Assembly (NCBI GenBank): GCA_021802425.1
Contig: JAJZXJ010000002.1
Location: forward strand, 46,508 to 110,507
Direction: 5' to 3'
DNA: 64,000 bases
From: a bacterium
GTDB lineage: Bacteria > SZUA-79 > Acidulodesulfobacterales > Acidulodesulfobacteraceae
Shown: piece by piece, positions 15,994 to 43,268 of the stretch
How the letters are laid out: every line of letters begins with the position of its first letter
How positions within the stretch are numbered: position 1 is the first letter of the stretch
Position numbers and translations under genes: made by a program
Notes under the pieces: model-generated
Database searches by the model: none
Seen by the model: the letters and a program-made list of their open reading frames with translations, nothing else
Told to the model about the DNA's origin: nothing

Positions 15994-16767
15994 TTAAAAT
16001 TTAACATTAATATTAATGCTCGATATTGTATTAAACGGTTTAAATCCCGCAGGAACAAGCGTTTGATATTCAAGTTCATAGTAGATAGCAAGATATACGT
16101 TTTTTACTATTTTTGTGCTAAGTTTAGTTAAAGATTCGTAAAAAGAACCGCCTTTGTTTGCGAGATATGCCGTGATTTCCTCTTTAAACTTGACGCCTTT
16201 ATTTAATTTCCAATGATACTTCGCTCTAATCATTGTCGTAACAGATCCAAAATACGGACCGCCGATAATTTTTTCCTGCCTTAATCCCGGCGCTAATTCT
16301 ATGGACGAATTCATATTTTTAGAAATAATAAACTTTTTACCGTAGCCGATATTTTCGTATATTCTGTATCCGAACCCCGTAACAATATTCCTATCGAATC
16401 TTTCATCGGCAAAAATATAAGAAGTTTTGTTAAAATAATAAGATGAATTTTCTTGCGCAATAAGCCTTAAATAACTGAGCTGGCTATATTCTGTTATGTA
16501 ATTGTAAACAAACCTGAGTTTATGACGCCATGGATAGTTTTTATATTTTAGATAGTCCCGCGTATTTATATTAAATGACGGAATCGTTCCTGTCGTGTTT
16601 GATATTCCAAGACCGATGCCCGCTTTTAGATTTTTATTATTTGTCTTTGTATTTGCATAAGATATTCCGGTAAAAACAATTAAATTTGCAAATAAAATAA
16701 AGAATAATACAAAAATTAATTTGCTTAAGATTTTAATGTAATTTTTTAAAATATTTATAATATACAT
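15994..16767 (-). CDS. Putative outer-membrane beta-barrel protein (DUF481/YdiY-like)
   Basis: N-terminal signal-like segment, alternating aromatic/polar beta-strand pattern, and a C-terminal ...NINVKF with terminal Phe. Confidence 0.4.
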   Translation of the reverse strand: MYIINILKNYIKILSKLIFVLFFILFANLIVFTGISYANTKTNNKNLKAGIGLGISNTTGTIPSFNINTRDYLKYKNYPWRHKLRFVYNYITEYSQLSYLRLIAQENSSYYFNKTSYIFADERFDRNIVTGFGYRIYENIGYGKKFIISKNMNSSIELAPGLRQEKIIGGPYFGSVTTMIRAKYHWKLNKGVKFKEEITAYLANKGGSFYESLTKLSTKIVKNVYLAIYYELEYQTLVPAGFKPFNTISSININVKF

Positions 16768-16809
16768 TAAATAATATGTTAAGATGTTCTAATTTGATAT
16801 TGATAAAAA

Positions 16810-17376
16810 TTATCTTTTGATTATTTTATGGCCGGCCTGCTCAAATCTTGTAACTTTCCATTCTAAAAATGGTTTATATTGAAAAACCGCCGCGGCGTTT
16901 TTAGTTTTTAAAGTCGTAAATAATTTTGGATGCATATTATTTTTACTCATAAGCCTGTAAATGTAGTTCGGATTAAATTTGAAAATAAAAAACGCTTTAG
17001 CTTTTTTACGGGAAATAAATCTAAGATTATATGCTTTAATTATTTTTAATGTTCCAAGTCTTATATATGTTCTATCGGCTATTTTAAATAAGTAAGGTTT
17101 AAAAAGCGGCGTAAAAGAGGTATAGCCCAATTTTTTGTGAAACTTGATATACCCGCCTTTTAATAAGAGCATATAAAATTTATCGTTATTAAGACTGGCA
17201 GCCCTGGTATAGGGCAATGCAAAAAAGACGGAAGAATTTATTTTTTCTATTATTAATTTTTTCGCAAGGGCTTTTGTGAGGATTTCCGGCTTTTGAGCGC
17301 ACCCGGATAGGAATAAAGGCAGCAAAAAGATAATAGTTAAGACTATAGCCGATAATTTTGATTTTTTCATAAACAT
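16810..17376 (-). CDS. Hypothetical lipoprotein
   Basis: Signal peptide with the lipobox LFLSGC. Lys-rich, with no recognisable domain. Confidence 0.5.
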   Translation of the reverse strand: MFMKKSKLSAIVLTIIFLLPLFLSGCAQKPEILTKALAKKLIIEKINSSVFFALPYTRAASLNNDKFYMLLLKGGYIKFHKKLGYTSFTPLFKPYLFKIADRTYIRLGTLKIIKAYNLRFISRKKAKAFFIFKFNPNYIYRLMSKNNMHPKLFTTLKTKNAAAVFQYKPFLEWKVTRFEQAGHKIIKR

Positions 17377-17431: not shown

Positions 17432-17646
17432 CCCCAATCCCGATTTAGAAAATATTTATATATTCCAATGATAAGCAATCCTGGATTCCCGCCTGCGCGG
17501 GAATGACTATGTGAGAATTGAGGTTTTCACCCAACAGGCATCCCAACCCGCTTCAGCGGGAAAGTTTCAAAGAAACTTCACGAGCACCGTTAGGTGCGAG
17601 AGCGAAGCGTTAATCCAGAAAATAAAATCCTAAATCGGGATTTGGG
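17432..17646. mobile_element. MITE-like structured intergenic repeat, complete copy (copy A)
   Basis: Terminal inverted repeats ccccaatcccgatttag (17432-17448) and ctaaatcgggatttggg (17630-17646). The interior holds stacked hairpins: attcccgc-ctgc-gcgggaat at 17485-17504, cccgc-ttca-gcggg, and gcacc-gtta-ggtgc. It has no coding capacity. The core is shared with 24915-25101. Confidence 0.55.
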
Positions 17647-17657
17647 ATTTTATTTTT

Positions 17658-20600
17658 TTATTTAATATTGCCTGAATTCATTTGCCCAAGTTTCCATTTT
17701 TTCCAGATAAGATATAATGTCGGCAATAAAAGCAGGTTAAGTATCGTAGCCGTGATCATCCCGCCGACCATAGGCGACGCTATAAACTTTGTCATTCTTG
17801 CTCCCGTGCCGTAGGCGAACATTGCGGGAAGAAGTCCGACGATGATGGACATTGCCGTCATAACGATAGGGCGGAGCCTTATTATCGAGCCTTTAATTAC
17901 TATCTGCTCTATGTCGGCACCGGCTTCGTAATAATTATGAAACGTAAGCTCCAGTATGGAAATCATAACCACGCCTATTTCCGTAGATACCCCCATTGCG
18001 GCAATGATGCCGACCCATACGGCGATAGACATCGTTATATGCATAAGGTAAAGATACCAGAACGCCCCGACTAACGCAAACGGTATCGAAAAAAGCGCCA
18101 GAAGCGATAACGGTATGGATTTAAAATTAAAATATATTAAAAGGAAGATAATAAATATGGTTATGGGAATTATGACCATAAGCTTATTGTTTGCCCTTTT
18201 GAGGGATTTATATTCGCCGCTTATAGTATATGTATAGCCCTTGGGAAATTTAACATATTTATTAATCATTTTTTTAGCGTTTTTTGCCCATAATACCATA
18301 TTGGACGTGTTTAAAGTTATATCGACGGTGTCGTCCGGCGTTCCTCCCTGCGAAGATACGAAAGACGGGCCCAGTTCATACTTTATAGATGCAAGTTCCT
18401 TTAAAGGTATGAATCCGCCGTCGGTTTTTACGAGTATGTTTCCCAGAGATTTTAAATTATTTCTATAAGCGTAAGGGTATCTGACCGAAAGCGGATAACG
18501 GGCTAATCCGTCGTAAATAGTGCTTATCGTTTTACCGCCCGCAGAGGAGTCTATAGCTTCGTTTATGTTTTTAAGCGATATTCCGTAAAAACCCATAGCG
18601 TCGGCATTCGGCTTAATTACTATATACGGTCTGTTATAAACCCTTTCGGCATAAGCGCTCAATGTTCCCTTTACCATAGAAGCGGCTCCGGCAACTTTTT
18701 CCGCCAACTTTTGCAGTGTTTTTACGTTAGAACCGTATATTTTTATTCCTATAGGCGTCCTTAAACCGGCAGACGTCATTTCTATCCTGTTTTTAATGGG
18801 CATAGTCCACACGTTTTCGATGCCGGGTATATTTAACGCTTTATTCATTTTATTTATCAGCTTTCTTACGGTCATGCCGGCCGGCCAATATTTTCTTCTC
18901 TTTAAAACGATCGTAGTTTCGGTCATACTTAAAGACGAAGGATCAAAAGCCGTATTTGCCCTGCCCGCTTTTCCGGTAACCATTTTTACTTCCGGAAATT
19001 TTTTAATTATCCTGTCTTCTACTTGCAAAAGCTGCGCCGCATCCGTATATGAATAACCCGGGGTCGATGAAGGCATATATAAGAGCGTTCCTTCGTTTAA
19101 GGGCGGCATAAACTGCGAGCCGAGCTGGACGAACGCAAAGTATCCGCTTGCCAAAACGACAAACAGCATAGCCAAAAATACGTTCCTATGCTTCATAACG
19201 AATTTTAAAACGGGCGAGTACAAAAAAACTAAAAATCTGTTTATAGGATTTTTGTCTAAAGGCATTATCCTGCCTTTAATCAGATAAACCATAAGAATAG
19301 GCACGAATATAACGGATAGAACAGCCGCAAAAATCATCGAAAATGTTTTAGTGTATGCTAAAGGTCTGAACAATGCGCCTACTTCGCCGGTTAAAAAGAA
19401 AATCGGCAGAAATCCGACCGCTATAATAATAAGCGAGTAAAAAAGCGGCTTACCCATCTCTTTTGCCGAATCCACGACACAGAGTTTTCTCGCCTCTTCC
19501 TTATTTTCCATACCGCCGTGCGGGCATTTTTCGGGTGCGCATTCTAAAATTTCCAGATGCGCATGGGCGTTTTCGATCATTACTATAGCGGAATCGGTCA
19601 TTGCGCCGATTGCAAGCGCTATGCCGGAGAGGGACATTATATTTGCGCTTATGCGAAGCATGTACATAAGCAGAAATGCCCCGAGAATAGCAAACGGAAT
19701 CATTATAACTATAACTAAGGACGACCTTAAATGAAACAGGAAAAGCATAATAACGAAGATAACTATTAAAACTATCATAATAAGCGTGGTTTTAAGCGTC
19801 GAGACGGAAGCGGCGATAAGGGTGCTCTGATCGTATGTAGTTATTATTTTTGCGCCTTTCGGGAGGGAGTTTTTAAGCTCTTTGAGTTTATTCTTTACGG
19901 CGGCGATTACTTTCAGCGTATCCGATCCCTGGTCTTTTATTACGACTCCGCCTATCATCTGTCCTTTGCCGTTTAAATCCGATATAGAGCGGCTTGAAGC
20001 AGGCACTAATTGAACCGTTCCTATGTTTTTGACTAAAACAGGCGTGTGAGCTGCCGTCTCCCCTACGACGATATTTCGTATCTGTTTTAAATTATGAAGA
20101 TAACCCCTGACATAGATTAAATGGCTTACCCCCGACGAAGAGTTTATAATCCTTGCCCCGTTATCGGAGTTGGAAGACTTTATATTATTAATTACCCGAG
20201 ATAACGATACATTATAATACTGAAGCGCTTTGGGATTAATCGTAACCTGATATTCTTTATTCCAGCCGCCGTAAGTCGCAACCTGCGCCACTCCCGGCAC
20301 GGTTTCTAAGGCGTATCTGAGGAAATACTCCTGATAGGAATATAAATCCGCTAAACTCTGATTATGCACTTTGTCTATTATTGCATACTGGTAAACCCAG
20401 TCCACTCCGTTTGCGTAAGGGCTTAAAACCGGGGAAACACCCGGAGGAAGCAGTTTTTTTGCCTGAGAAAGATATGTCAGTATCTGCGCCCTCGCCCATC
20501 CTAACGATGTCCCTCTTTTAAATACGACCGTAACAAAAGATGTGCCGTACATAGAATTTCCTCTAACCTCTTTAACCCTCGGCGCCGAAATAAGCGAGGA

Positions 20601-20810
20601 CTCTATGGGGTAGGTTACCTGAAGCTGGACTATGTTCGGCGGCTGTCCCTGCCACGCCGTTTTGATAATAACCTCTGAAGGCGCTATATCGGGAAGTGCG
20701 TTAAGCCTTATGTTGTAAATTGCGTAAACCCCGCCGAGCCCCAGAAACAGCATAAAAACAAAAACTAAAAACTGATTATTTATGCAGTAATCTATTATTT
20801 TATTTATCAT
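17658..20810 (-). CDS. cusA: CusA-type heavy-metal (Cu(I)/Ag(I)) RND efflux pump
   Basis: 1050 aa with HME-RND architecture. The three Met positions of the CusA metal site appear conserved (LYMPSS, LSMTETT, RIEMTSAG) when aligned from memory to E. coli CusA M573/M623/M672. Confidence 0.85.
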   Translation of the reverse strand: MINKIIDYCINNQFLVFVFMLFLGLGGVYAIYNIRLNALPDIAPSEVIIKTAWQGQPPNIVQLQVTYPIESSLISAPRVKEVRGNSMYGTSFVTVVFKRGTSLGWARAQILTYLSQAKKLLPPGVSPVLSPYANGVDWVYQYAIIDKVHNQSLADLYSYQEYFLRYALETVPGVAQVATYGGWNKEYQVTINPKALQYYNVSLSRVINNIKSSNSDNGARIINSSSGVSHLIYVRGYLHNLKQIRNIVVGETAAHTPVLVKNIGTVQLVPASSRSISDLNGKGQMIGGVVIKDQGSDTLKVIAAVKNKLKELKNSLPKGAKIITTYDQSTLIAASVSTLKTTLIMIVLIVIFVIMLFLFHLRSSLVIVIMIPFAILGAFLLMYMLRISANIMSLSGIALAIGAMTDSAIVMIENAHAHLEILECAPEKCPHGGMENKEEARKLCVVDSAKEMGKPLFYSLIIIAVGFLPIFFLTGEVGALFRPLAYTKTFSMIFAAVLSVIFVPILMVYLIKGRIMPLDKNPINRFLVFLYSPVLKFVMKHRNVFLAMLFVVLASGYFAFVQLGSQFMPPLNEGTLLYMPSSTPGYSYTDAAQLLQVEDRIIKKFPEVKMVTGKAGRANTAFDPSSLSMTETTIVLKRRKYWPAGMTVRKLINKMNKALNIPGIENVWTMPIKNRIEMTSAGLRTPIGIKIYGSNVKTLQKLAEKVAGAASMVKGTLSAYAERVYNRPYIVIKPNADAMGFYGISLKNINEAIDSSAGGKTISTIYDGLARYPLSVRYPYAYRNNLKSLGNILVKTDGGFIPLKELASIKYELGPSFVSSQGGTPDDTVDITLNTSNMVLWAKNAKKMINKYVKFPKGYTYTISGEYKSLKRANNKLMVIIPITIFIIFLLIYFNFKSIPLSLLALFSIPFALVGAFWYLYLMHITMSIAVWVGIIAAMGVSTEIGVVMISILELTFHNYYEAGADIEQIVIKGSIIRLRPIVMTAMSIIVGLLPAMFAYGTGARMTKFIASPMVGGMITATILNLLLLPTLYLIWKKWKLGQMNSGNIK

Positions 20811-20889: not shown

Positions 20890-22221
20890 TCACATTCCGG
20901 GCATACCGGTCATAGAAGAAGTCTTTTTTGGCCGGCCCGAGTTGTTTGATATTGCCTGCGTTCCTGCCGTAGAAGAAGTCTTTTGCGATAAATTTGAATT
21001 GTTTGACATTCCAGACATTCCCGGCATTCCCGCCATAGAACCGGTAGCCTGCGATAGATTGGAGTCGCTCGACATAAGGAATGTTCCCGATACGACGATT
21101 CTCTCGCCGTTTTTTAAGCCCGATATTACCGGATAGTAATCGCCGTATCTTGTCCCTATAACGACATATTTCGGCATAAAATATCCTTTTCCTTTATAAA
21201 CGAAAACCAGCGGTTTTGCCCCCGTAATAAGAACGGCGGATGTCGGAACCGCAATAACCTTTTCGCTTTTAATCATAATTTCGGCATTTCCGTACATATC
21301 AGGTTTTATTTCGCCGTTTGAATTGTTAAAAACAAGCCTGACCTCGTCAACCCTTTTTTTGCTGGCAAGATAAGGGTAAATAAACGAAACCCTGCCGTAA
21401 AATACCCGCCCTGGATAAGCGTTAAATGTTACCTTTACCGTTGCCCCCGTCTTTACGAAAGGCATATCCTTTTCATAAACCAATATGTTCATCCATACGC
21501 GGCTTAGTCCGGCCAGTTTATAAAGCGGCTGTCCCGCATTAAAATAACTTCCGGAAAAAATAGATTTTTTCAAGAAGACGCCGTTTACCGGCGAGTAAAC
21601 GGTAGTATTCGTCAATATAAGCCTTCCCGTTTTTAATAAGTTCAACTGGCTGTTTGTTATGCCTAACCGTTTGAGCCTGAAGACGGATGAGTTTAAAAAG
21701 GCTTTAGCCTCTTTTATTCCGAAATTAAAGCCCGATTTTTTTAATTTTTTATAGTTTTTATAGGCAAGCATAAAATCTTTTTCGCTGTTGACTAACTCGG
21801 GGCTGTAAACCGTAAAAAGAGGCTCCCCCTTATAAACGCTCATGCCGGGTTTATTTATAAAGAGATTTTTGACATAACCGCCGTATTTCAATGTTACGGT
21901 TTGTTCTAAAGGAACGCTGTAGGCAACCTCGCCTATGGTTTTAATTTTTCTTGTTAATTTCATTAATTTTGCTTTTCCGACTTTTATGCCGTAAAGCTGT
22001 CTTTGAAGCGTGCTTACCATTACCCCGCCTTTTGCCATTTGAGCTCCGCTGACCTTCGGTTCCATTTTAGGTTTTGCGTTTACGCTTTTTCCGGCGGGAA
22101 TCCGGTTATCCGTTCCGGTAAATATACCCGTATTTTTAAAAATTATAACCGTAACAATGCCGCCGAGAATAAAGGCGGATAAAAATATCAATATATTTTT
22201 AGCGTTTTTTGAAACTTTCAT
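20890..22221 (-). CDS. cusB: RND periplasmic adaptor (CusB-like) with a Met-rich C-terminal tail
   Basis: N-terminal anchor with lipoyl/beta-barrel adaptor blocks. The tail reads SNLSQATGSMAGMPGMSGMSNNSNLSQKTSSTAGT...TSSMTGMPGM. Confidence 0.8.
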   Translation of the reverse strand: MKVSKNAKNILIFLSAFILGGIVTVIIFKNTGIFTGTDNRIPAGKSVNAKPKMEPKVSGAQMAKGGVMVSTLQRQLYGIKVGKAKLMKLTRKIKTIGEVAYSVPLEQTVTLKYGGYVKNLFINKPGMSVYKGEPLFTVYSPELVNSEKDFMLAYKNYKKLKKSGFNFGIKEAKAFLNSSVFRLKRLGITNSQLNLLKTGRLILTNTTVYSPVNGVFLKKSIFSGSYFNAGQPLYKLAGLSRVWMNILVYEKDMPFVKTGATVKVTFNAYPGRVFYGRVSFIYPYLASKKRVDEVRLVFNNSNGEIKPDMYGNAEIMIKSEKVIAVPTSAVLITGAKPLVFVYKGKGYFMPKYVVIGTRYGDYYPVISGLKNGERIVVSGTFLMSSDSNLSQATGSMAGMPGMSGMSNNSNLSQKTSSTAGTQAISNNSGRPKKTSSMTGMPGM

Positions 22222-22248: not shown

Positions 22249-23571
22249 TTATTGTATTTTCCCCATAATTTGTTCGAGCCGCGATTTGTCTATATAATAT
22301 TTTGCGTTATAGATATCCATTTCGAACTCCGCGTCGATTAACTTTCTGAAACTGTCTAACAGCGGGAATGCGGACGACCTTTTCACCCCGAAAGATGCTG
22401 TTTCGGCTTTAAAAAGAAGCTTTGCTTCAGGAATATATAAACTTTTGTACAATTTGTAATTGTTTTTGTTTAAACGCATATCTTTCACATATACGCTAAT
22501 GTTTTTTATAATTTGCAACTTTTCCCAGCTAATATCGTAAATAGACGAAAGCCTGTCCTTTTCGGCTTTATTTATTAAAGGTTTCTGATAGGAGTTAAAA
22601 TATACGGGCAGGGATAACCCGACCGAAGCCGATAAAACTGGGACCATCGAATATCTGTCTCCGTAACCGGCTTTGAGGTAAAAATCGGGAAGATAAGATT
22701 CCTTTGCGTATGCGGTTTCATAATCCGATTTTTTGGCGAGATATTTTAACGATTTTAATTCCGGATTAAATTTATATGCCGTTTTTATATATTCTTTTTC
22801 GTTTAATTCACCTTCTGGAGACATGCCCGTTTTTACCCCTTTTCTTACCCCCGATATCTTCGGCAGGACGGCGCGGTCAAATTTAATATACGAAGATTTT
22901 AGTCCCGTGAGTTCGCCCAATAAATAAATTAATTTAGCTTTAGCCCTGCTTAGCGTAAGCAGTTTCGATTTCAACGATGCATCTTCCAGCATAGTCCTGA
23001 TATAAGCCGGAGCGGAAGCGCTTCCCGTGCCGTATTTCTGGGAAATATCTTTAAGGATTATATTTAAAAGCAGCCTGTTATATTTCACTACGGCAATCTG
23101 TTTTTCTAACAAAGCAAGATTATAATAGCTTTCCTTGACCAAATAAGCGGTATTAATTTTTAATGCCCTTGTTTTTGCTTTTGACGACATATAAGAATAC
23201 TTATTTATTTGGCTTTTCGTTTCGAGTTTCGAAGGAAAAGGTATCTTCTGGCTTATACTGAAGCCGATATCGCTCATCCCATTAACCCCGATTCCGGGAT
23301 TATTAAACCCGTTTGCATCGGTAAGCCCTATTCCTGCCACTGGTTCCGGAAGGGCTTTTGCAATAGCAATTTCTTCTTTGCGCCCTTCGGTCTTCAGAGC
23401 GGACGAAGTTATTTCCGGATTTTTCAAGGCATTTTTTATAAGCATTTTTAAAGACAGTGTACCTGCCGCATAAGACCTGCCGCCGTAGAAGATTAAACCT
23501 GTTAAAATGACAAAGAAAGAAAGCAAAATTAAAACCTTCCGCTTTAACCCGCATAAATTAAATATATTCAT
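22249..23571 (-). CDS. cusC: TolC-family outer-membrane factor (CusC/CzcC-like)
   Basis: 440 aa with a signal sequence and a two-repeat OEP-like coiled/barrel pattern. It sits at the head of the C-B-A gene order. Confidence 0.75.
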   Translation of the reverse strand: MNIFNLCGLKRKVLILLSFFVILTGLIFYGGRSYAAGTLSLKMLIKNALKNPEITSSALKTEGRKEEIAIAKALPEPVAGIGLTDANGFNNPGIGVNGMSDIGFSISQKIPFPSKLETKSQINKYSYMSSKAKTRALKINTAYLVKESYYNLALLEKQIAVVKYNRLLLNIILKDISQKYGTGSASAPAYIRTMLEDASLKSKLLTLSRAKAKLIYLLGELTGLKSSYIKFDRAVLPKISGVRKGVKTGMSPEGELNEKEYIKTAYKFNPELKSLKYLAKKSDYETAYAKESYLPDFYLKAGYGDRYSMVPVLSASVGLSLPVYFNSYQKPLINKAEKDRLSSIYDISWEKLQIIKNISVYVKDMRLNKNNYKLYKSLYIPEAKLLFKAETASFGVKRSSAFPLLDSFRKLIDAEFEMDIYNAKYYIDKSRLEQIMGKIQ

Positions 23572-23599
23572 ATTATTTATTCTCCATAATTAATATAAA

Positions 23600-23679
23600 A
23601 CCCTAACCCTGCACGAGAACTTCGCTTAATCCTCCACCACGCCTTGCAGGCGATAGCGTAAGGGGTGCAGGATTAGGGT
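23600..23679. repeat. Long inverted repeat / stem-loop between the cytochrome c gene and cusC
   Basis: accctaaccctgcac (23600-23614) pairs with gtgcaggattagggt (23665-23679) at 14 of 15 positions, enclosing about 50 nt. The interior contains gagaacttcgcttaatcc, which is reminiscent of the gagagcgaagcgttaatcc block of the flanking repeats. Confidence 0.5.
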
Positions 23680-23702
23680 AAAATTTGAAATAATCTTTTC
23701 TA

Positions 23703-24242
23703 TTATTTTAAGGATGCGAGATACTTTGCCAGTATGCCGATATTCTTTGAGGACATATTTTTAAAAGAAGGCATAACAGCCCTGTATTTAACCCCGTTTA
23801 AAGTTACCACGCTGTTTCTCTTAAAATGCGCGGAAGGGTCGGCTATCTGGGTCGCAATCCATGAAAAACTTCTTATAGAGCCGATATGCGATAGATTGGG
23901 CGCATCGTTACCGCCGGCACCTAAGCCGTTTATCGTATGACACATAAAACAGCCTTCATAATGGAACAAGGCCGGTCCGGTTTTTACGCCTTTATACTGT
24001 GGAAACATTTTGTGTCCCATGCTGTTTACCTTTTTTCCAGTCATGTTATTGCCCATTCCCATCATTCCCATCATTCCGTTATTGCCGCCCGTCATGCCCA
24101 TCATGCCGCTGTTGCCGGCCGCTCCGTTCGCGCCCTGGCCGTAACCGTTTCCGCTAAATAAATAAATTCCTGCAATGACTAACAGTACCGATAATATCGA
24201 AACAATTACAAATTTTTTGTTATGCAAATATTTTGTTTTCAT
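23703..24242 (-). CDS. Membrane-anchored class-I c-type cytochrome with a Met/Gly-rich linker
   Basis: N-terminal TM helix, then GNSGMMGMTGGNNGMMGMMGMGNNMTG, then the haem motif CFMCH and a distal-ligand-like AVMPSF. Confidence 0.75.
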   Translation of the reverse strand: MKTKYLHNKKFVIVSILSVLLVIAGIYLFSGNGYGQGANGAAGNSGMMGMTGGNNGMMGMMGMGNNMTGKKVNSMGHKMFPQYKGVKTGPALFHYEGCFMCHTINGLGAGGNDAPNLSHIGSIRSFSWIATQIADPSAHFKRNSVVTLNGVKYRAVMPSFKNMSSKNIGILAKYLASLK

Positions 24243-24422
24243 AAAGAACTCCCTTCTTGTAATTTAATAATTTAATTATGTTAATTTTAAATTTGCGCGC
24301 ATCTTAAACATAAACATAGGATGATAACATAAGATATAATAATAGATAAAACTATAGCGGATTATATCTTAAGCTGACGAACTTATGTTCGATGCATTCG
24401 CGATAAAGATTGGCTGTTTAAT

Positions 24423-24866
24423 TTAACTAAATAAGGTAAGGCTGTTTTGAGGGGGATGGGGTATATCGGAAGAAAAATGTTTAATATAGGATTTTCCAGG
24501 GGATGAGATTGTTTTAACAAAACTACCGTAATCAAATGATGCGGGATAATAAGCGGTCGGTAAATTCTGACATTCTATGCAGGTTATATAAGACTCTAAA
24601 TTTAACTTATTGGAATGCGGCGAAACGGTTTTTAAAAAAGATAGCGGGGATGCTTTTTTCACCCCTTGCGCAGGTTTTCCCGCCGCCTGTCCCGCCTGCA
24701 TCATATTCATAGACATTCCCGCCTGCATCGGGGACATAATCATCGGGATATTAAACATATAGCTTATATCCGCAGCCGCGATTAGATAAAAAATAGCAAT
24801 AGCGGCAAGAGGAAAAAATAGAAAAAACTTATATTTTTTATTCAAAAAATATTTATTGTTTTTCAT
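24423..24866 (-). CDS. Small membrane-anchored Met-rich protein of unknown function
   Basis: Start trimmed to MKNNKYF. The longer ORF (to 24935) runs into the intergenic repeat. It has a TM segment, then MFNIPMIMSPMQAGMSMNMMQAGQAAG, and later a CIEC pair. I recognise no family. Confidence 0.45.
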   Translation of the reverse strand: MKNNKYFLNKKYKFFLFFPLAAIAIFYLIAAADISYMFNIPMIMSPMQAGMSMNMMQAGQAAGKPAQGVKKASPLSFLKTVSPHSNKLNLESYITCIECQNLPTAYYPASFDYGSFVKTISSPGKSYIKHFSSDIPHPPQNSLTLFS

Positions 24867-24914
24867 AATTACACATATATTACATAAACTACTCCCCAAA
24901 GTCAAGACTAAAAT

Positions 24915-25101
24915 TTCACCTGTTGGGTGTCCCAACCCCCTTCAGCGGGAAAGTTTAGGATAAACTTCACATATAGGAGGCACGCGTTGAAAGGCGCACG
25001 CCGCCTTTGCGTGCCGGAGATGCCGAAGTGCGAGAGCGAAGCGTTAATCCAGTGCTATTTAGTATTAGAACTTATAAATATTTTCTAAATCGGGATTGGG
25101 G
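24915..25101. repeat. Second (partial) copy of the structured repeat (copy B)
   Basis: Shares three blocks with copy A: tcccaaccc(c/g)cttcagcgggaaagttt, aaacttcac and gtgcgagagcgaagcgttaatccag. Its right end tataaatattttctaaatcgggattgggg (25073-25101) is the exact reverse complement of copy A's left end (17432-17460). No left terminal repeat was found. Confidence 0.55.
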
Positions 25102-25621: not shown

Positions 25622-26831
25622 GGAGGAATTAAATGTCCAAAGAGAAATTTGACAGATCAAAGCCGCATGTCAATATAGGCACGATAGGTCATGTTGACCA
25701 TGGCAAGACCACATTAACCGCCGCCATTACAAAGGTTCTTTCGAGAAAAGGCCAGGCTTCCTTTAAATCGTATGACCAGATTGATAATGCGCCCGAAGAA
25801 AAGGAAAGGGGTATTACGATTGCCACATCCCATGTCGAATATTCTACCGATAAAAGGCACTATGCCCATGTTGACTGTCCGGGACACGCCGACTATGTTA
25901 AGAATATGATTACCGGCGCCGCCCAGATGGACGGAGCCATACTTGTGGTTTCCGCAGCCGACGGCCCTATGCCCCAGACGAGGGAGCATATACTTTTAGC
26001 CCGTCAGGTCGGCGTTCCCTATATAGTCGTATTTTTAAATAAGGTCGATATGGTGGACGACCCCGAACTTCTTGAGCTTGTCGAACTCGAAGTAAGAGAG
26101 CTTTTGACCTCCTATAACTTTCCGGGGGACTCTGTTCCCGTAGTAAAGGGTTCCGCCCTTAAGGCACTCGAGGCGGAGTCGGATAACGAATGGACACAGA
26201 AGATAGTTGATCTTATGAATGCCGTCGATGAATATATTCCGCTTCCGAAAAGAGATATAGATAAGCCGTTCCTTATGCCGGTCGAGGATGTATTTTCCAT
26301 ATCCGGAAGGGGAACCGTTGCAACGGGCAGGGTAGAAAGAGGCATAGTCAAGGTCGGAGATGAAATCGAACTTGTCGGAATACTTCCGACATCCAAAACA
26401 GTCGTAACAGGCGTAGAAATGTTCAGGAAGCTCTTGGACGAAGGACAGGCAGGCGACAACATAGGCGTTCTTTTAAGGGGCAAGAAGCGCGAAGAGGTGG
26501 AAAGGGGCATGGTTTTGTCCAAACCCGGTTCCATAACTCCCCATAAGAGGTTTAAGGTAGAGGCATATGTTCTTACCAAGGAAGAAGGTGGCCGCCATAC
26601 CCCGTTCTTTAACGGCTACCGTCCGCAGTTCTATTTCAGGACTACAGATGTTACCGGGGTTTGCACGCTGCCGGAAGGCGTCGAAATGGTAATGCCTGGA
26701 GACAATGTGTCTATGAGCGTCGAACTCATTACCCCGATAGCCGCCGAAAAGGAATTAAGGTTTGCCATAAGAGAGGGAGGGCACACTGTAGGCGCCGGGG
26801 TTATAACCGAGGTTATAGAGTAATTTAAACA
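25622..26831 (+). repeat. tuf duplication, copy 1 (about 1.21 kb, apparently identical to 42059-43268)
   Basis: The proteins are identical, and so are the off-frame antisense ORF translations (91 aa and 155 aa). Identity starts at ggaggaattaa upstream of the ATG and ends 8 nt after the stop. Confidence 0.85.
25633..26823 (+). CDS. tuf: Elongation factor Tu (copy 1, tufB-like context)
   Basis: [14 protein letters not shown] and NKVD GTPase motifs. 396 aa. It follows the Thr-Tyr-Gly-Thr tRNA cluster. Confidence 0.97.
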
Positions 26832-42058: not shown

Positions 42059-43268
42059 GGAGGAATTAAATGTCCAAAGAGAAATTTGACAGATCAAAGC
42101 CGCATGTCAATATAGGCACGATAGGTCATGTTGACCATGGCAAGACCACATTAACCGCCGCCATTACAAAGGTTCTTTCGAGAAAAGGCCAGGCTTCCTT
42201 TAAATCGTATGACCAGATTGATAATGCGCCCGAAGAAAAGGAAAGGGGTATTACGATTGCCACATCCCATGTCGAATATTCTACCGATAAAAGGCACTAT
42301 GCCCATGTTGACTGTCCGGGACACGCCGACTATGTTAAGAATATGATTACCGGCGCCGCCCAGATGGACGGAGCCATACTTGTGGTTTCCGCAGCCGACG
42401 GCCCTATGCCCCAGACGAGGGAGCATATACTTTTAGCCCGTCAGGTCGGCGTTCCCTATATAGTCGTATTTTTAAATAAGGTCGATATGGTGGACGACCC
42501 CGAACTTCTTGAGCTTGTCGAACTCGAAGTAAGAGAGCTTTTGACCTCCTATAACTTTCCGGGGGACTCTGTTCCCGTAGTAAAGGGTTCCGCCCTTAAG
42601 GCACTCGAGGCGGAGTCGGATAACGAATGGACACAGAAGATAGTTGATCTTATGAATGCCGTCGATGAATATATTCCGCTTCCGAAAAGAGATATAGATA
42701 AGCCGTTCCTTATGCCGGTCGAGGATGTATTTTCCATATCCGGAAGGGGAACCGTTGCAACGGGCAGGGTAGAAAGAGGCATAGTCAAGGTCGGAGATGA
42801 AATCGAACTTGTCGGAATACTTCCGACATCCAAAACAGTCGTAACAGGCGTAGAAATGTTCAGGAAGCTCTTGGACGAAGGACAGGCAGGCGACAACATA
42901 GGCGTTCTTTTAAGGGGCAAGAAGCGCGAAGAGGTGGAAAGGGGCATGGTTTTGTCCAAACCCGGTTCCATAACTCCCCATAAGAGGTTTAAGGTAGAGG
43001 CATATGTTCTTACCAAGGAAGAAGGTGGCCGCCATACCCCGTTCTTTAACGGCTACCGTCCGCAGTTCTATTTCAGGACTACAGATGTTACCGGGGTTTG
43101 CACGCTGCCGGAAGGCGTCGAAATGGTAATGCCTGGAGACAATGTGTCTATGAGCGTCGAACTCATTACCCCGATAGCCGCCGAAAAGGAATTAAGGTTT
43201 GCCATAAGAGAGGGAGGGCACACTGTAGGCGCCGGGGTTATAACCGAGGTTATAGAGTAATTTAAACA
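42059..43268 (+). repeat. tuf duplication, copy 2
   Basis: See copy 1 (25622-26831). The flanking sequences differ on both sides. Confidence 0.85.
42070..43260 (+). CDS. tuf: Elongation factor Tu (copy 2, tufA-like context in the str operon)
   Basis: The protein is identical to copy 1. It follows fusA. Confidence 0.97.

Follow-up and report, generated by a model that had tools for sequence, protein, structure and literature searches.

The CutF protein of Rhodobacter capsulatus, at first proposed to be a chaperone (PMC8456105), is exported co-translationally, and copper on its nascent chain prolongs a stalling-like state that opens a stem-loop over the ribosome-binding site of the next gene (PMC9973294, PMC8456105). 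CutF-like proteins, among them CusD, SilD, CopL and CruR, are defined by a length of less than 150 amino acids (aa), a signal peptide, a Cys or His motif, a Pro-Pro pair (PP) in the last 15 residues and a gene on the same strand at most 1000 nt downstream; their commonest downstream neighbour is the OEP gene of cus, czc or sil operons (PMC9973294). The Cys-to-PP spacing of CutF is 45 aa, and a geometry spanning ribosome and translocon was hypothesised by its authors (PMC9973294). Here we describe a cus locus in a 64,000-nt stretch of DNA from a bacterium of the Acidulodesulfobacterales (contig JAJZXJ010000002.1 of assembly GCA_021802425.1, positions 46,508 to 110,507; hereafter the window, whose numbering is used throughout). 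On the minus strand of this 64-kb window, five consecutive genes run in the order ORF2, cytochrome c, cusC, cusB and cusA. As judged from its motifs, spacing and gene linkage, ORF2 most likely encodes a co-translational periplasmic copper sensor and not a replacement for the CusF chaperone.

Two methionine-rich genes upstream of cusCBA

An earlier note on this DNA, made from the letters alone, had placed two methionine-rich, membrane-anchored proteins, one of them a c-type cytochrome, at the head of cusCBA in place of a CusF chaperone. Coordinates, Met counts and homologues agree that both are real proteins, anchored or exported at their N-termini. Among the 411 six-frame stop-to-stop segments of at least 50 aa in the window, two contain six or more Met per 30-aa window, namely the cytochrome (10 Met) and ORF2 (8 Met); as these are the sole segments of such density, the Met enrichment is beyond chance and the observation is confirmed. 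Homologues of both proteins come almost exclusively from metagenome-assembled genomes of acid mine drainage (Candidatus Acidulodesulfobacterium, Acididesulfobacter, SZUA-79). The nearest named relative of the cassette is that of Ca. Acidulodesulfobacterium ferriphilum, with identities of 96% for CusA, 83% for ORF2 and 78% for the cytochrome. The original description of the order reported expression of cusAB, and the two upstream genes went unmentioned (PMC6776010).

The arrangement recurs in related genomes, and the survey of gene neighbourhoods, a check that the earlier note had itself proposed, separated the two genes that the earlier note had grouped as one kind. ORF2 lies directly upstream of the genes for an outer membrane factor (OMF), CusB and a pump of the resistance-nodulation-division (RND) type in 14 of 15 loci. 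The cytochrome gene stands between ORF2 and these genes in nine loci (the window, L001/L053, L002, L004, L005/L057, L054 and L056) and is missing from five cassettes (L052, from Acididesulfobacter diazotrophicus, L055, L058, L061 and L063), and some of its orthologues and paralogues lie outside metal loci. At L006/L049, ORF2 and the cytochrome gene are kept with no cus genes downstream; the L003 locus is truncated. The cassette was found in at least five genomic contexts, with neighbours that include a Cu P-type ATPase, a second RND operon, vapBC, proC and DsbD, which indicates that it has moved as a unit. Since ORF2 occurs in cassettes with and without the cytochrome gene, ORF2 is the conserved partner of the pump and the cytochrome a clade-specific addition.

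A small PF02594 ('PF1765-like') gene was repeatedly seen before RND operons (L054, 4186–4413; L057, 7777–8004; L063, 1180–1407; L059, 6770–6997). It abuts ORF2 in L057 and elsewhere heads a second, non-Cus RND operon.

ORF2 represents an unannotated protein family

ORF2 and its elements are located as follows.

24423–24866, minus strand: ORF2, 147 aa from the ATG at 24866, small exported or anchored protein (homologues, dN/dS, synteny)
24771–24824, minus strand: hydrophobic signal or anchor segment of ORF2, residues 15–32, after a K-rich n-region (sequence; AlphaFold2 helix 8–38)
24699–24758, minus strand: Met-rich tract of ORF2, residues 37–56, including the family-wide N-x-P-M-x-M core (8 Met in 30 aa)
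24570–24581, minus strand: CxEC motif of ORF2, C96–C99 (CIEC; family conservation)
24450–24458, minus strand: H137-P138-P139 codons of ORF2 (CAT CCC CCT), a putative ribosome-pausing motif 8 codons before the stop (invariant)

The homologues of ORF2 comprise 46 protein clusters and additional remote homologues, 113–159 aa in length. Together with a ratio of nonsynonymous to synonymous substitutions (dN/dS) of 0.21–0.47 against nine orthologues, they establish ORF2 as a real, translated gene. A profile search of 1.84 billion representative proteins retrieved further homologues of about 130 aa with 22–37% identity, and a metagenome scan returned a single locus. ORF2 has no Pfam or NCBIfam match, and the 17 family members scanned against these collections gave scattered chance hits alone. 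The family being invisible to both, such leader genes are annotated as 'hypothetical' or missed.

Residues P41, C96, C99, N101, H137, P138 and P139 are invariant across the family, and Y27, L28, S35, N39, M44 and E98 nearly so; within the signal or anchor segment, P19, A24 and L28 are invariant in the alignment of ORF2 homologues. These residues fall mainly into three motifs: YL..D.SY..N.PMxM, just after the hydrophobic segment; CxEC.N; and HPP(K/Q), which ends 0–15 residues before the stop codon and in the paralogue P0101 is followed directly by it. Conservation of the Met-rich tract, on which the earlier note had made its reading depend, was divided for ORF2 (MFNIPMIMSPMQAGMSMNMM). The PMxM core of this tract extends throughout the family, with N39, P41 and M44 kept even in the homologues of 22–37% identity; the longer tract is restricted to members from the Acidulodesulfobacterales. 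The linker of the cytochrome, in turn, keeps its Met-rich composition in all anchored orthologues with a delimitable linker (49/49).

The N-terminus combines a K-rich n-region with an 18-residue hydrophobic core, and the −1 residue is T or H in remote homologues; the segment may be a cleaved signal or, given this −1 residue, an uncleaved anchor. AlphaFold2 (AF2) gave a mean predicted local distance difference test score (pLDDT) of 46 for ORF2, with no fold beyond the N-terminal helix 8–38 and no β-strands. The family and structure searches that had been proposed as a check thus placed the cytochrome (PF00034) and gave no family for ORF2; with pLDDT values of 46 and 55, respectively, the models of ORF2 and the cytochrome are too poor for a fold search. 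ORF2 diverges quickly: its identity is 28% in L061 and 49% in L063, while that of the adjacent CusA is 79% and 93%, with the Met triad of the pump kept. ORF2 is therefore a fast-evolving small exported protein. As far as sequence and synteny can tell, it represents an unannotated and undescribed family tied to Cu(I)/Ag(I) RND pumps, and this is the better-supported finding of the two upstream genes.

ORF2 has a CutF-like architecture

With 147 aa, ORF2 is within the size range of CutF-like proteins. Its central Cys motif (C96/C99, CxEC) is invariant family-wide, as is the HPP motif that supplies the proline pair 0–15 residues from the end. The next gene, on the same strand and 64–654 nt downstream, is that of the cytochrome or of the cus OMF.

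The strongest regularity of the family is a distance. The second Cys of CxEC and the first Pro of HPP are 39 residues apart in all family members but one (56/57), which has 40, and the 37-residue spacer between the motifs is itself unconserved, ranging from polar (maximum 19-aa hydropathy 0.2) to transmembrane-like (2.35). The gap between PMxM and CxEC, by comparison, takes 16 different lengths of 33–53 residues. A fixed length of 39 residues without a fixed sequence argues for a ruler on the nascent chain, measured by the ribosome tunnel and the translocon, and not for a CusF substitute. Codon choice at the motif is also distinctive: the three prolines of IPHPP are encoded by CCY codons in 38 of 41 cases and by CCG in 2 of 41, and P41, P46 and P108 by CCG in 30 of 39, counts that come from related loci and hence are not independent.

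ORF2 would accordingly be said to work like CutF by its architecture, and not to be a demonstrated member of that group. Relationship by descent was sought in three ways. At E values up to 1, none of 17 ORF2 members matched PF11162 (DUF2946) or any NCBIfam model; a search of a 5.8-billion-protein set with a widened ORF2 alignment revealed no bridge to DUF2946; and hhalign compared the ORF2 profile with the CusD-like ORF of Variovorax at a probability of 0.1. The first and third of these results restrict CutF-like membership to architecture, which could be the product of convergence, and so count against the sensor reading. The 39-residue spacing, for its part, could also reflect a small metal-clasped fold missed by AF2.

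The pump is of the Cu(I)/Ag(I) type and lacks CusF

The three genes of the pump are the following.

22249–23571, minus strand: cusC-like outer membrane factor (OEP family), 440 aa (PF02321, E 3.4e-34)
20890–22221, minus strand: cusB-like periplasmic adaptor, 443 aa, with a duplicated C-terminal ...GSMAGMPGM tail (PF16576, E 1.2e-56)
17658–20810, minus strand: cusA, Cu(I)/Ag(I)-type heavy-metal efflux (HME) RND permease, 1050 aa (TIGR00914, 929 bits)

CusA scored 929 bits against TIGR00914 (cut-off 701), and 859 bits against E. coli CusA compared with 425 bits against the Zn pump ZneA. The Cu(I) triad of E. coli CusA (M573, M623, M672) corresponds to M579, M629 and M678 here. The fourth transmembrane segment (TM4), AIGAMTDSAIVMIEN, conserves the motif sought (AxGxMxDxAIVMIEN), including its Met residues. 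The pump is thus of the Cu(I)/Ag(I) CusA type (HME4 CusCBA) by sequence, and metal export itself is predicted. CusB scored 90.7 bits against its E. coli counterpart, which has an N-terminal three-Met site (M49, M64 and M66 of the precursor); the FMDMD segment of the E. coli protein is not conserved in the window CusB, which has M53, M62 and M68 nearby. At its other end, ...GSMAGMPGM forms the extreme C-terminus of all 13 CusB homologues listed (the window, L002, L004, L052–L058 and L061–L063), and the motif is doubled, with a Ser/Asn-rich spacer between the copies, in the window (20890–21050), L056, L002 and L057. This tail may give CusB a Cu(I) site of its own and so make up for the absence of CusF.

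A hidden Markov model (HMM) built from three CusF sequences (PF11604) detected no CusF in any frame of the window, the best E value among all six-frame segments being 0.56, in agreement with the earlier note. Whether the two upstream proteins take the place of CusF is another matter. Both could be stable periplasmic Cu(I)/Ag(I) carriers that hand metal to CusB and CusA, with the haem adding redox conversion or sensing. CusF and CusB bind Cu(I) through MxM motifs, the two Met-rich tracts are unique in a window without CusF, ORF2 is tightly linked to cusCBA, and CutF itself was once regarded as a chaperone (PMC8456105). Nevertheless, ORF2 has neither the homology nor the fold of CusF, its Met tract is reduced family-wide to the PMxM core, and CusB has a conserved Met tail of its own. 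A Shine-Dalgarno (SD) sequence before ORF2 is absent from all 12 loci examined (12/12), which is ill-suited to an abundant chaperone, and the invariant HPP, the exact 39-residue spacing and the unconserved spacer are left unexplained by a carrier role. We therefore consider a carrier role for both proteins unlikely, and the proposal that ORF2 stands in for CusF gave way to its CutF-like architecture.

Two further cus loci were observed during this comparison. On a plasmid of Variovorax sp. RA8 (L065, 9193–9531), the CusF encoded downstream of the cus operon opens with MNCMDMKGMDMKGMDMKGMDMKGMNMD, a Met-rich (MDMKG)n repeat fused to a bona fide CusF domain; the OMF gene of the same locus is preceded by that of a perhaps CusD-like CxxHC protein of 156 aa, for which Pfam gave no match. 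On the megaplasmid of Acidithiobacillus caldus SM-1 (L064; NC_015851, 76036–89125), the genes that come after cusCBA encode an AIM24 protein, a prokaryotic cytochrome b561 (PF01292) and CusF, an independent linkage of a haem protein to cus in another acidophile.

Promoter, leader RNA and intergenic spacers

Three non-coding elements accompany the upstream genes.

24877–24905, minus strand: promoter-like site, TTGACT, 17 nt, TAATAT (ends 11 nt before the ORF2 ATG)
24243–24422, minus strand: AT-rich 180-nt leader from ORF2 to the cytochrome gene, bounded by a conserved block on either side; strong SD, AAGGGAG (locus comparison)
23572–23702, minus strand: cytochrome–cusC spacer, 131 nt, with a long imperfect hairpin ACCCTAATCCTGCAC...GTGCAGGGTTAGGGT, then TTTTATATT and the cusC SD (fold −45.8 kcal/mol)

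In several loci a promoter-like −10 box lies close to the ORF2 ATG. Four loci (L052, L055, L056 and L058) have TTGACA, a 17-nt spacer and TAT(G/T)CT 35–75 nt upstream of that ATG, and the spacer of this promoter contains a dyad, e.g. CCCGTAACGGG, which could be the operator of a metal-responsive regulator. The promoter-like sequence of the window differs from theirs because a repeat element has been inserted there.

The spacers after ORF2 are 64–654 nt long, AT-rich and broken by variable insertions. Two blocks are conserved in them, one just after the stop codon (AACAGCCAATCTTT..TTGCGTGC) and one 50–90 nt before the next start (GCACGCAAATTAAAAATTAATTAACATAATTAAATT and the strong SD). Both are kept whether the cytochrome gene or cusC comes next; the proximal block precedes cusC in L058, which has no cytochrome gene. 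The two blocks are complementary, with duplex z-scores of −0.7 to −3.5 against shuffled sequences in 10 of 11 loci. The OMF gene of L063 has its SD within AUGAGGUAUAUU, and this sequence makes a 12-bp helix with the D-I-P-H codons (GAUAUACCUCAU); in L061 the partners of the IPHPP codons are the SD and the start codon downstream. These pairings amount to −15.4 (L063) and −16.6 (L061) kcal/mol, compared with means of −7.1 and −9.2 for non-cognate pairs. An Rfam scan of the operon and the leaders found the neighbouring tRNAs only. In L055 (8388–9050), the ORF2–cusC spacer of about 650 nt contains several tandem copies of an element of about 60–70 nt (…CCTGTCATTGCGAGGAGC.TTAGC…CAAAAGGGGAATTAAAGACAAAAAC…), at the position that the cytochrome gene occupies in other loci.

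Several of these results weigh against ORF2 as a co-translational sensor. Among them is the lack of an SD ahead of ORF2. Most ORF2 leaders, at 96–654 nt, exceed the spacers of less than 100 nt typical of CutF. The long-range helix of the leader is only modestly better than that of shuffled sequences and is suggestive, not decisive. Masking of the next gene's SD by the HPP codons was rejected for the window, where the pairing of −6.7 kcal/mol does not surpass that with 17 unrelated start sites (mean −8.1), and survives as a lead for L061 and L063 only.

Only the three closest relatives, namely the window, L056 and L002, have the long hairpin in front of cusC; its fold ranges from −37 to −49 kcal/mol, and TTTTATATT comes after it. 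In other loci the cytochrome–cusC spacers are 20–103 nt long and lack this hairpin. The core of the hairpin resembles GGATTAAGCGAAG, in common with the repeat that flanks the cassette. The hairpin could be an insertion like a repetitive extragenic palindrome (REP) or an attenuator. A terminator-like hairpin at this place in the window counts against a copper role of the cytochrome.

A Met-tethered cytochrome c in a putatively regulated position

The second upstream gene encodes the c-type cytochrome.

23703–24242, minus strand: membrane-tethered monohaem class I cytochrome c, 179 aa (PF00034, E 1.2e-10)
24156–24212, minus strand: N-terminal anchor of the cytochrome, residues 11–29 (sequence; AF2 helix 7–30)
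24006–24113, minus strand: Met/Gly/Asn tether, residues 44–79, ending in the conserved MTGKxVNxMGHxMFP (10 Met in 30 aa)
23937–23951, minus strand: haem-binding motif CFMCH, C98–H102 (C98, C101 and H102 invariant)
23772–23774, minus strand: M157, probable distal haem ligand (AVMPSF; M157 and P158 invariant)

The assignment of this protein as a c-type cytochrome is borne out by a PF00034 score of 43 bits (cut-off 21.3), the CFMCH motif and the invariance of C98, C101, H102 and M157 among 27 homologues (65 homologues were collected in total). By the topology of class I cytochromes c, M157 is the probable distal haem ligand. The tether carries 6–17 Met in 38–74 residues in the 49 anchored orthologues with a delimitable linker; its length is variable and its composition constant. 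The (GMM)n-like repeats vary in number, and the MTGKxVNxMGHxMFP segment adjoining the haem domain is conserved. The AF2 model, with a pLDDT of 55 overall and below 50 at residues 31–66, predicts that the tether is disordered. The cytochrome gene comes directly after the ORF2 leader and has a strong, conserved SD. We met no earlier account of a cus operon with a Met-tethered cytochrome c in our literature searches, so the earlier note's view that the combination is not a described system stands; as far as these searches show, such a cytochrome in a putatively regulated position is undescribed.

A role in copper redox chemistry or hand-off is plausible for this protein, and it could also be a hitch-hiking respiratory cytochrome. 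Met motifs are found on CusB here and on the Variovorax CusF, and in A. caldus a cytochrome b561 gene lies downstream of cusCBA, all of which we counted in favour of a copper role. If it has one, electrons could flow either way by the sequence, reducing Cu(II) for the Cu(I)-specific pump or oxidising Cu(I).

The cytochrome could instead be an ordinary tethered respiratory carrier (cf. cytochrome cy, c550) that travels with the cassette, the Met/Gly sequence being the flexible tether of this lineage and copper being the concern of ORF2 and cusCBA only. The haem domain resembles ordinary respiratory cytochrome c domains, its best profile matches in the PDB being the dihaem protein 7zs0, c555, ACIII ActA, caa3 subunit II and CcoP. 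Five cassettes do without the cytochrome gene. Orthologues at 56% identity (Acidulodesulfobacterium sp. H_13, SZUA-79), with shorter Met-containing linkers, stand alone between aminotransferase and DNA glycosylase genes in housekeeping surroundings that include gatAB and glycosyltransferase genes, and anchored paralogues with Met/Gly linkers follow a SHOCT-domain gene and not cus. Because the cassette moves as a unit, linkage can persist without a shared function. These points weigh against a copper role. On the other side, the place behind the ORF2 leader is kept down to 68% cytochrome identity and in several genomic contexts, and the ORF2–cytochrome pair has outlasted the loss of cus in L006/L049. 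The (GMM)n repeat is also larger in ORF2-linked copies (9–17 Met) than in P0052, the stand-alone orthologue with a measurable linker (7 Met). To our knowledge, Met-rich tethers are not a generic linker type, and a literature search found none. Weighing both sides, we regard a purely respiratory cytochrome as possible, on the doubtful side.

The cytochrome might, alternatively, be a self-protecting isoform for copper stress, whose tether leaves the Sec translocon before CxxCH and scavenges Cu(I), so that haem attachment and respiration continue. Where copper acts in the periplasm, cytochrome c assembly is among its primary targets (PMC4600104). In this metal-exposed lineage, all anchored cytochromes of the family have Met/Gly linkers N-terminal to CxxCH, and the gene is in a putatively copper-regulated position. 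As the proposal leaves the tract-free soluble paralogues unexplained, we consider it quite unlikely.

Among the paralogues, two anchored cytochromes with Met/Gly/Phe linkers (L059, 4773–5656; L060, 6594–7480) are each preceded by a small SHOCT-domain gene; the neighbourhood in L059 includes genes for an ArsR-type regulator, DsbD, thioredoxin, TusA/DsrE and an HMBD P-type ATPase. Soluble tandem paralogues (L020) lie beside ahbAB-like, methyl-accepting chemotaxis protein (MCP) and exbBD genes, and no metal or oxidase neighbours of these were found. L044, a candidate for a second association of cytochrome and cus, was rejected: its OMF and adaptor have no pump with them, its P-type ATPase is not of the copper type, and its dihaem cytochrome is unrelated.

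Flanking repeats and neighbouring genes

The ORF2–cytochrome–cusCBA block diverges from a plus-strand tRNA-tufA-secE-nusG-rplKAJL-rpoB cluster and is enclosed as a whole by a direct repeat of about 95–140 nt.

17525–17618, plus strand: direct repeat copy 1 (just downstream of cusA; flanks the 7.3-kb cassette)
24914–25052, plus strand: direct repeat copy 2 (just upstream of ORF2; 45-nt insertion)

The repeat cores CTTCAGCGGGAAAGTTT and GCGAGAGCGAAGCGTTAATCC each occur exactly twice in the window, where none would be expected by chance. An exact 17-mer from the second core had no match in 58 related loci. The repeat could mark a mobile or recombined cassette; a distance of 140 nt separates its upstream copy (24914–25052) from tRNA-Thr(tgt).

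On its own strand, cusA is followed (15994–17376) by a 188-aa lipoprotein-like ORF with no family match, a homologue of which is found near the cassette in L002, and by the gene of a DUF481 outer-membrane protein (PF04338, E 8.5e-31). An exact 300-nt duplication (25622–25921 and 42059–42358) covers the tufA start, so that another copy of tuf is indicated at about 42.07 kb, a situation common to many bacteria.

Proposed model and significance

Starting from the observed gene identities, motifs, spacing, synteny and Cu(I) site of the pump, we propose a composite in which sensing, pausing, copper binding and redox activity would be distributed over the two leading genes. The locus would be a CusF-less Cu(I)/Ag(I) CusCBA cassette of an Acidulodesulfobacterium-like bacterium from acid mine drainage, with two lineage-specific upstream genes of different roles, ORF2 as the sensor and the cytochrome in copper redox chemistry, a composite to which we give an even chance. 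When the HPP codons are in translation, CxEC, exactly 39 residues back, would be at the exit of the translocon. Copper bound by the Cys and Met ligands of ORF2 would slow export and lengthen the pause, and the paused ribosome would alter the leader mRNA so that the next gene is expressed. The cytochrome would have been inserted into the first regulated position in one clade. Its disordered Met/Gly tether may bind Cu(I), and the haem may exchange an electron with the tether-bound copper, with the respiratory chain as partner, converting Cu(II) to pumpable Cu(I) or oxidising Cu(I).

A bolder version joins two claims. ORF2 would found an unrecognised family of 'ruler' sensors, convergent with CutF or very distant from it, and the cytochrome would be a new O2-independent haem c cuprous oxidase or cupric reductase, coupled to the respiratory chain, with the Met/Gly tether as Cu(I) substrate site, working with CusCBA in place of both CusF and multicopper oxidases. 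That both hold together we think improbable.

The one case shown so far of an exported nascent chain that senses metal as it is translated is CutF, from a single alphaproteobacterium. If ORF2 is such a sensor, this type of sensing would also occur in a family that is unrelated to CutF by sequence and belongs to an acidophilic, deltaproteobacteria-like lineage. The exact 39-residue spacing, kept despite sequence drift, would then be natural evidence for the ruler idea that the authors of the CutF work could only hypothesise, and a clean variable to manipulate. Similarly, if the copper role of the cytochrome is real, haem c on a Met-rich tether in a cus operon would be a new solution to the redox handling of periplasmic copper, one that suits often-anoxic organisms unable to rely on O2-dependent multicopper oxidases. 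This solution would be relevant to metal tolerance and copper cycling in acid mine drainage.

Comparison with known systems

ORF2 resembles CutF and the CutF-like proteins (CusD, SilD, CopL, CruR; DUF2946/PF11162; Ozturk et al. 2021, 2023) in its small size, signal-like N-terminus, central Cys motif and PP in the last 15 residues. Like their genes, it lies immediately upstream of metal-homeostasis genes on the same strand, OEP being the commonest neighbour, and its Cys-to-PP spacing of 39 aa is similar to the 45 aa of CutF. It differs from them in having CxEC instead of CxxHC, HPP(K/Q), an additional N-x-P-M-x-M or Met-rich element near the membrane and no SD, as well as in its mostly long leaders (64–654 nt) and the lack of detectable sequence homology. 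The hosts also differ: Acidulodesulfobacterales for ORF2, and Pseudomonadota or Bacteroidota for CutF-like proteins.

CzcI of Cupriavidus metallidurans, compared by description, is likewise small and exported, its gene immediately precedes that of the OMF in an HME-RND operon, and a regulatory role in metal sensing is suspected for it. Unlike ORF2, it has no C-terminal proline motif (PMC9973294) and belongs to a pump for divalent cations (czcCBA). CopJ, also compared by description, is a small periplasmic CxxC protein of copper-resistance clusters (copper-induced in Rubrivivax gelatinosus; copJ in the cop cluster of C. metallidurans). It is linked to cop (copA–copI) and not to cusCBA, and no Met-rich tether has been reported for it. 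With CusF (PF11604; E. coli cusCFBA), the upstream proteins have in common that they are encoded in a cus operon, periplasmic and equipped with Met-based Cu(I) ligands, which in the upstream proteins are putative. Neither of them, however, has the CusF domain (OB-fold; His/Met/Met/Trp ligands), and ORF2 has no predicted strands and carries Cys and PP motifs. Gene position differs as well, ORF2 and the cytochrome gene being upstream of cusC and CusF between cusC and cusB.

In its N-terminal anchor, flexible linker and C-terminal monohaem domain, the cytochrome is built like cytochrome cy of R. capsulatus, c550 of Bacillus and c555m of Aquifex. The linkers of those proteins are Ala/Pro-rich or short, not Met/Gly-rich, and we know of no case in which their genes lie inside metal-efflux operons. 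In the cuprous oxidases CueO and PcoA/CopA, which are multicopper oxidases, a disordered Met/Gly-rich insert lies beside a one-electron redox centre. The cytochrome differs from these enzymes in that its centre is haem c and not type-1 copper, with no cupredoxin domain, O2-reducing site or homology. Its Met/Gly tether, like their inserts, is placed beside a one-electron centre, and this is the analogy that we judge most useful.

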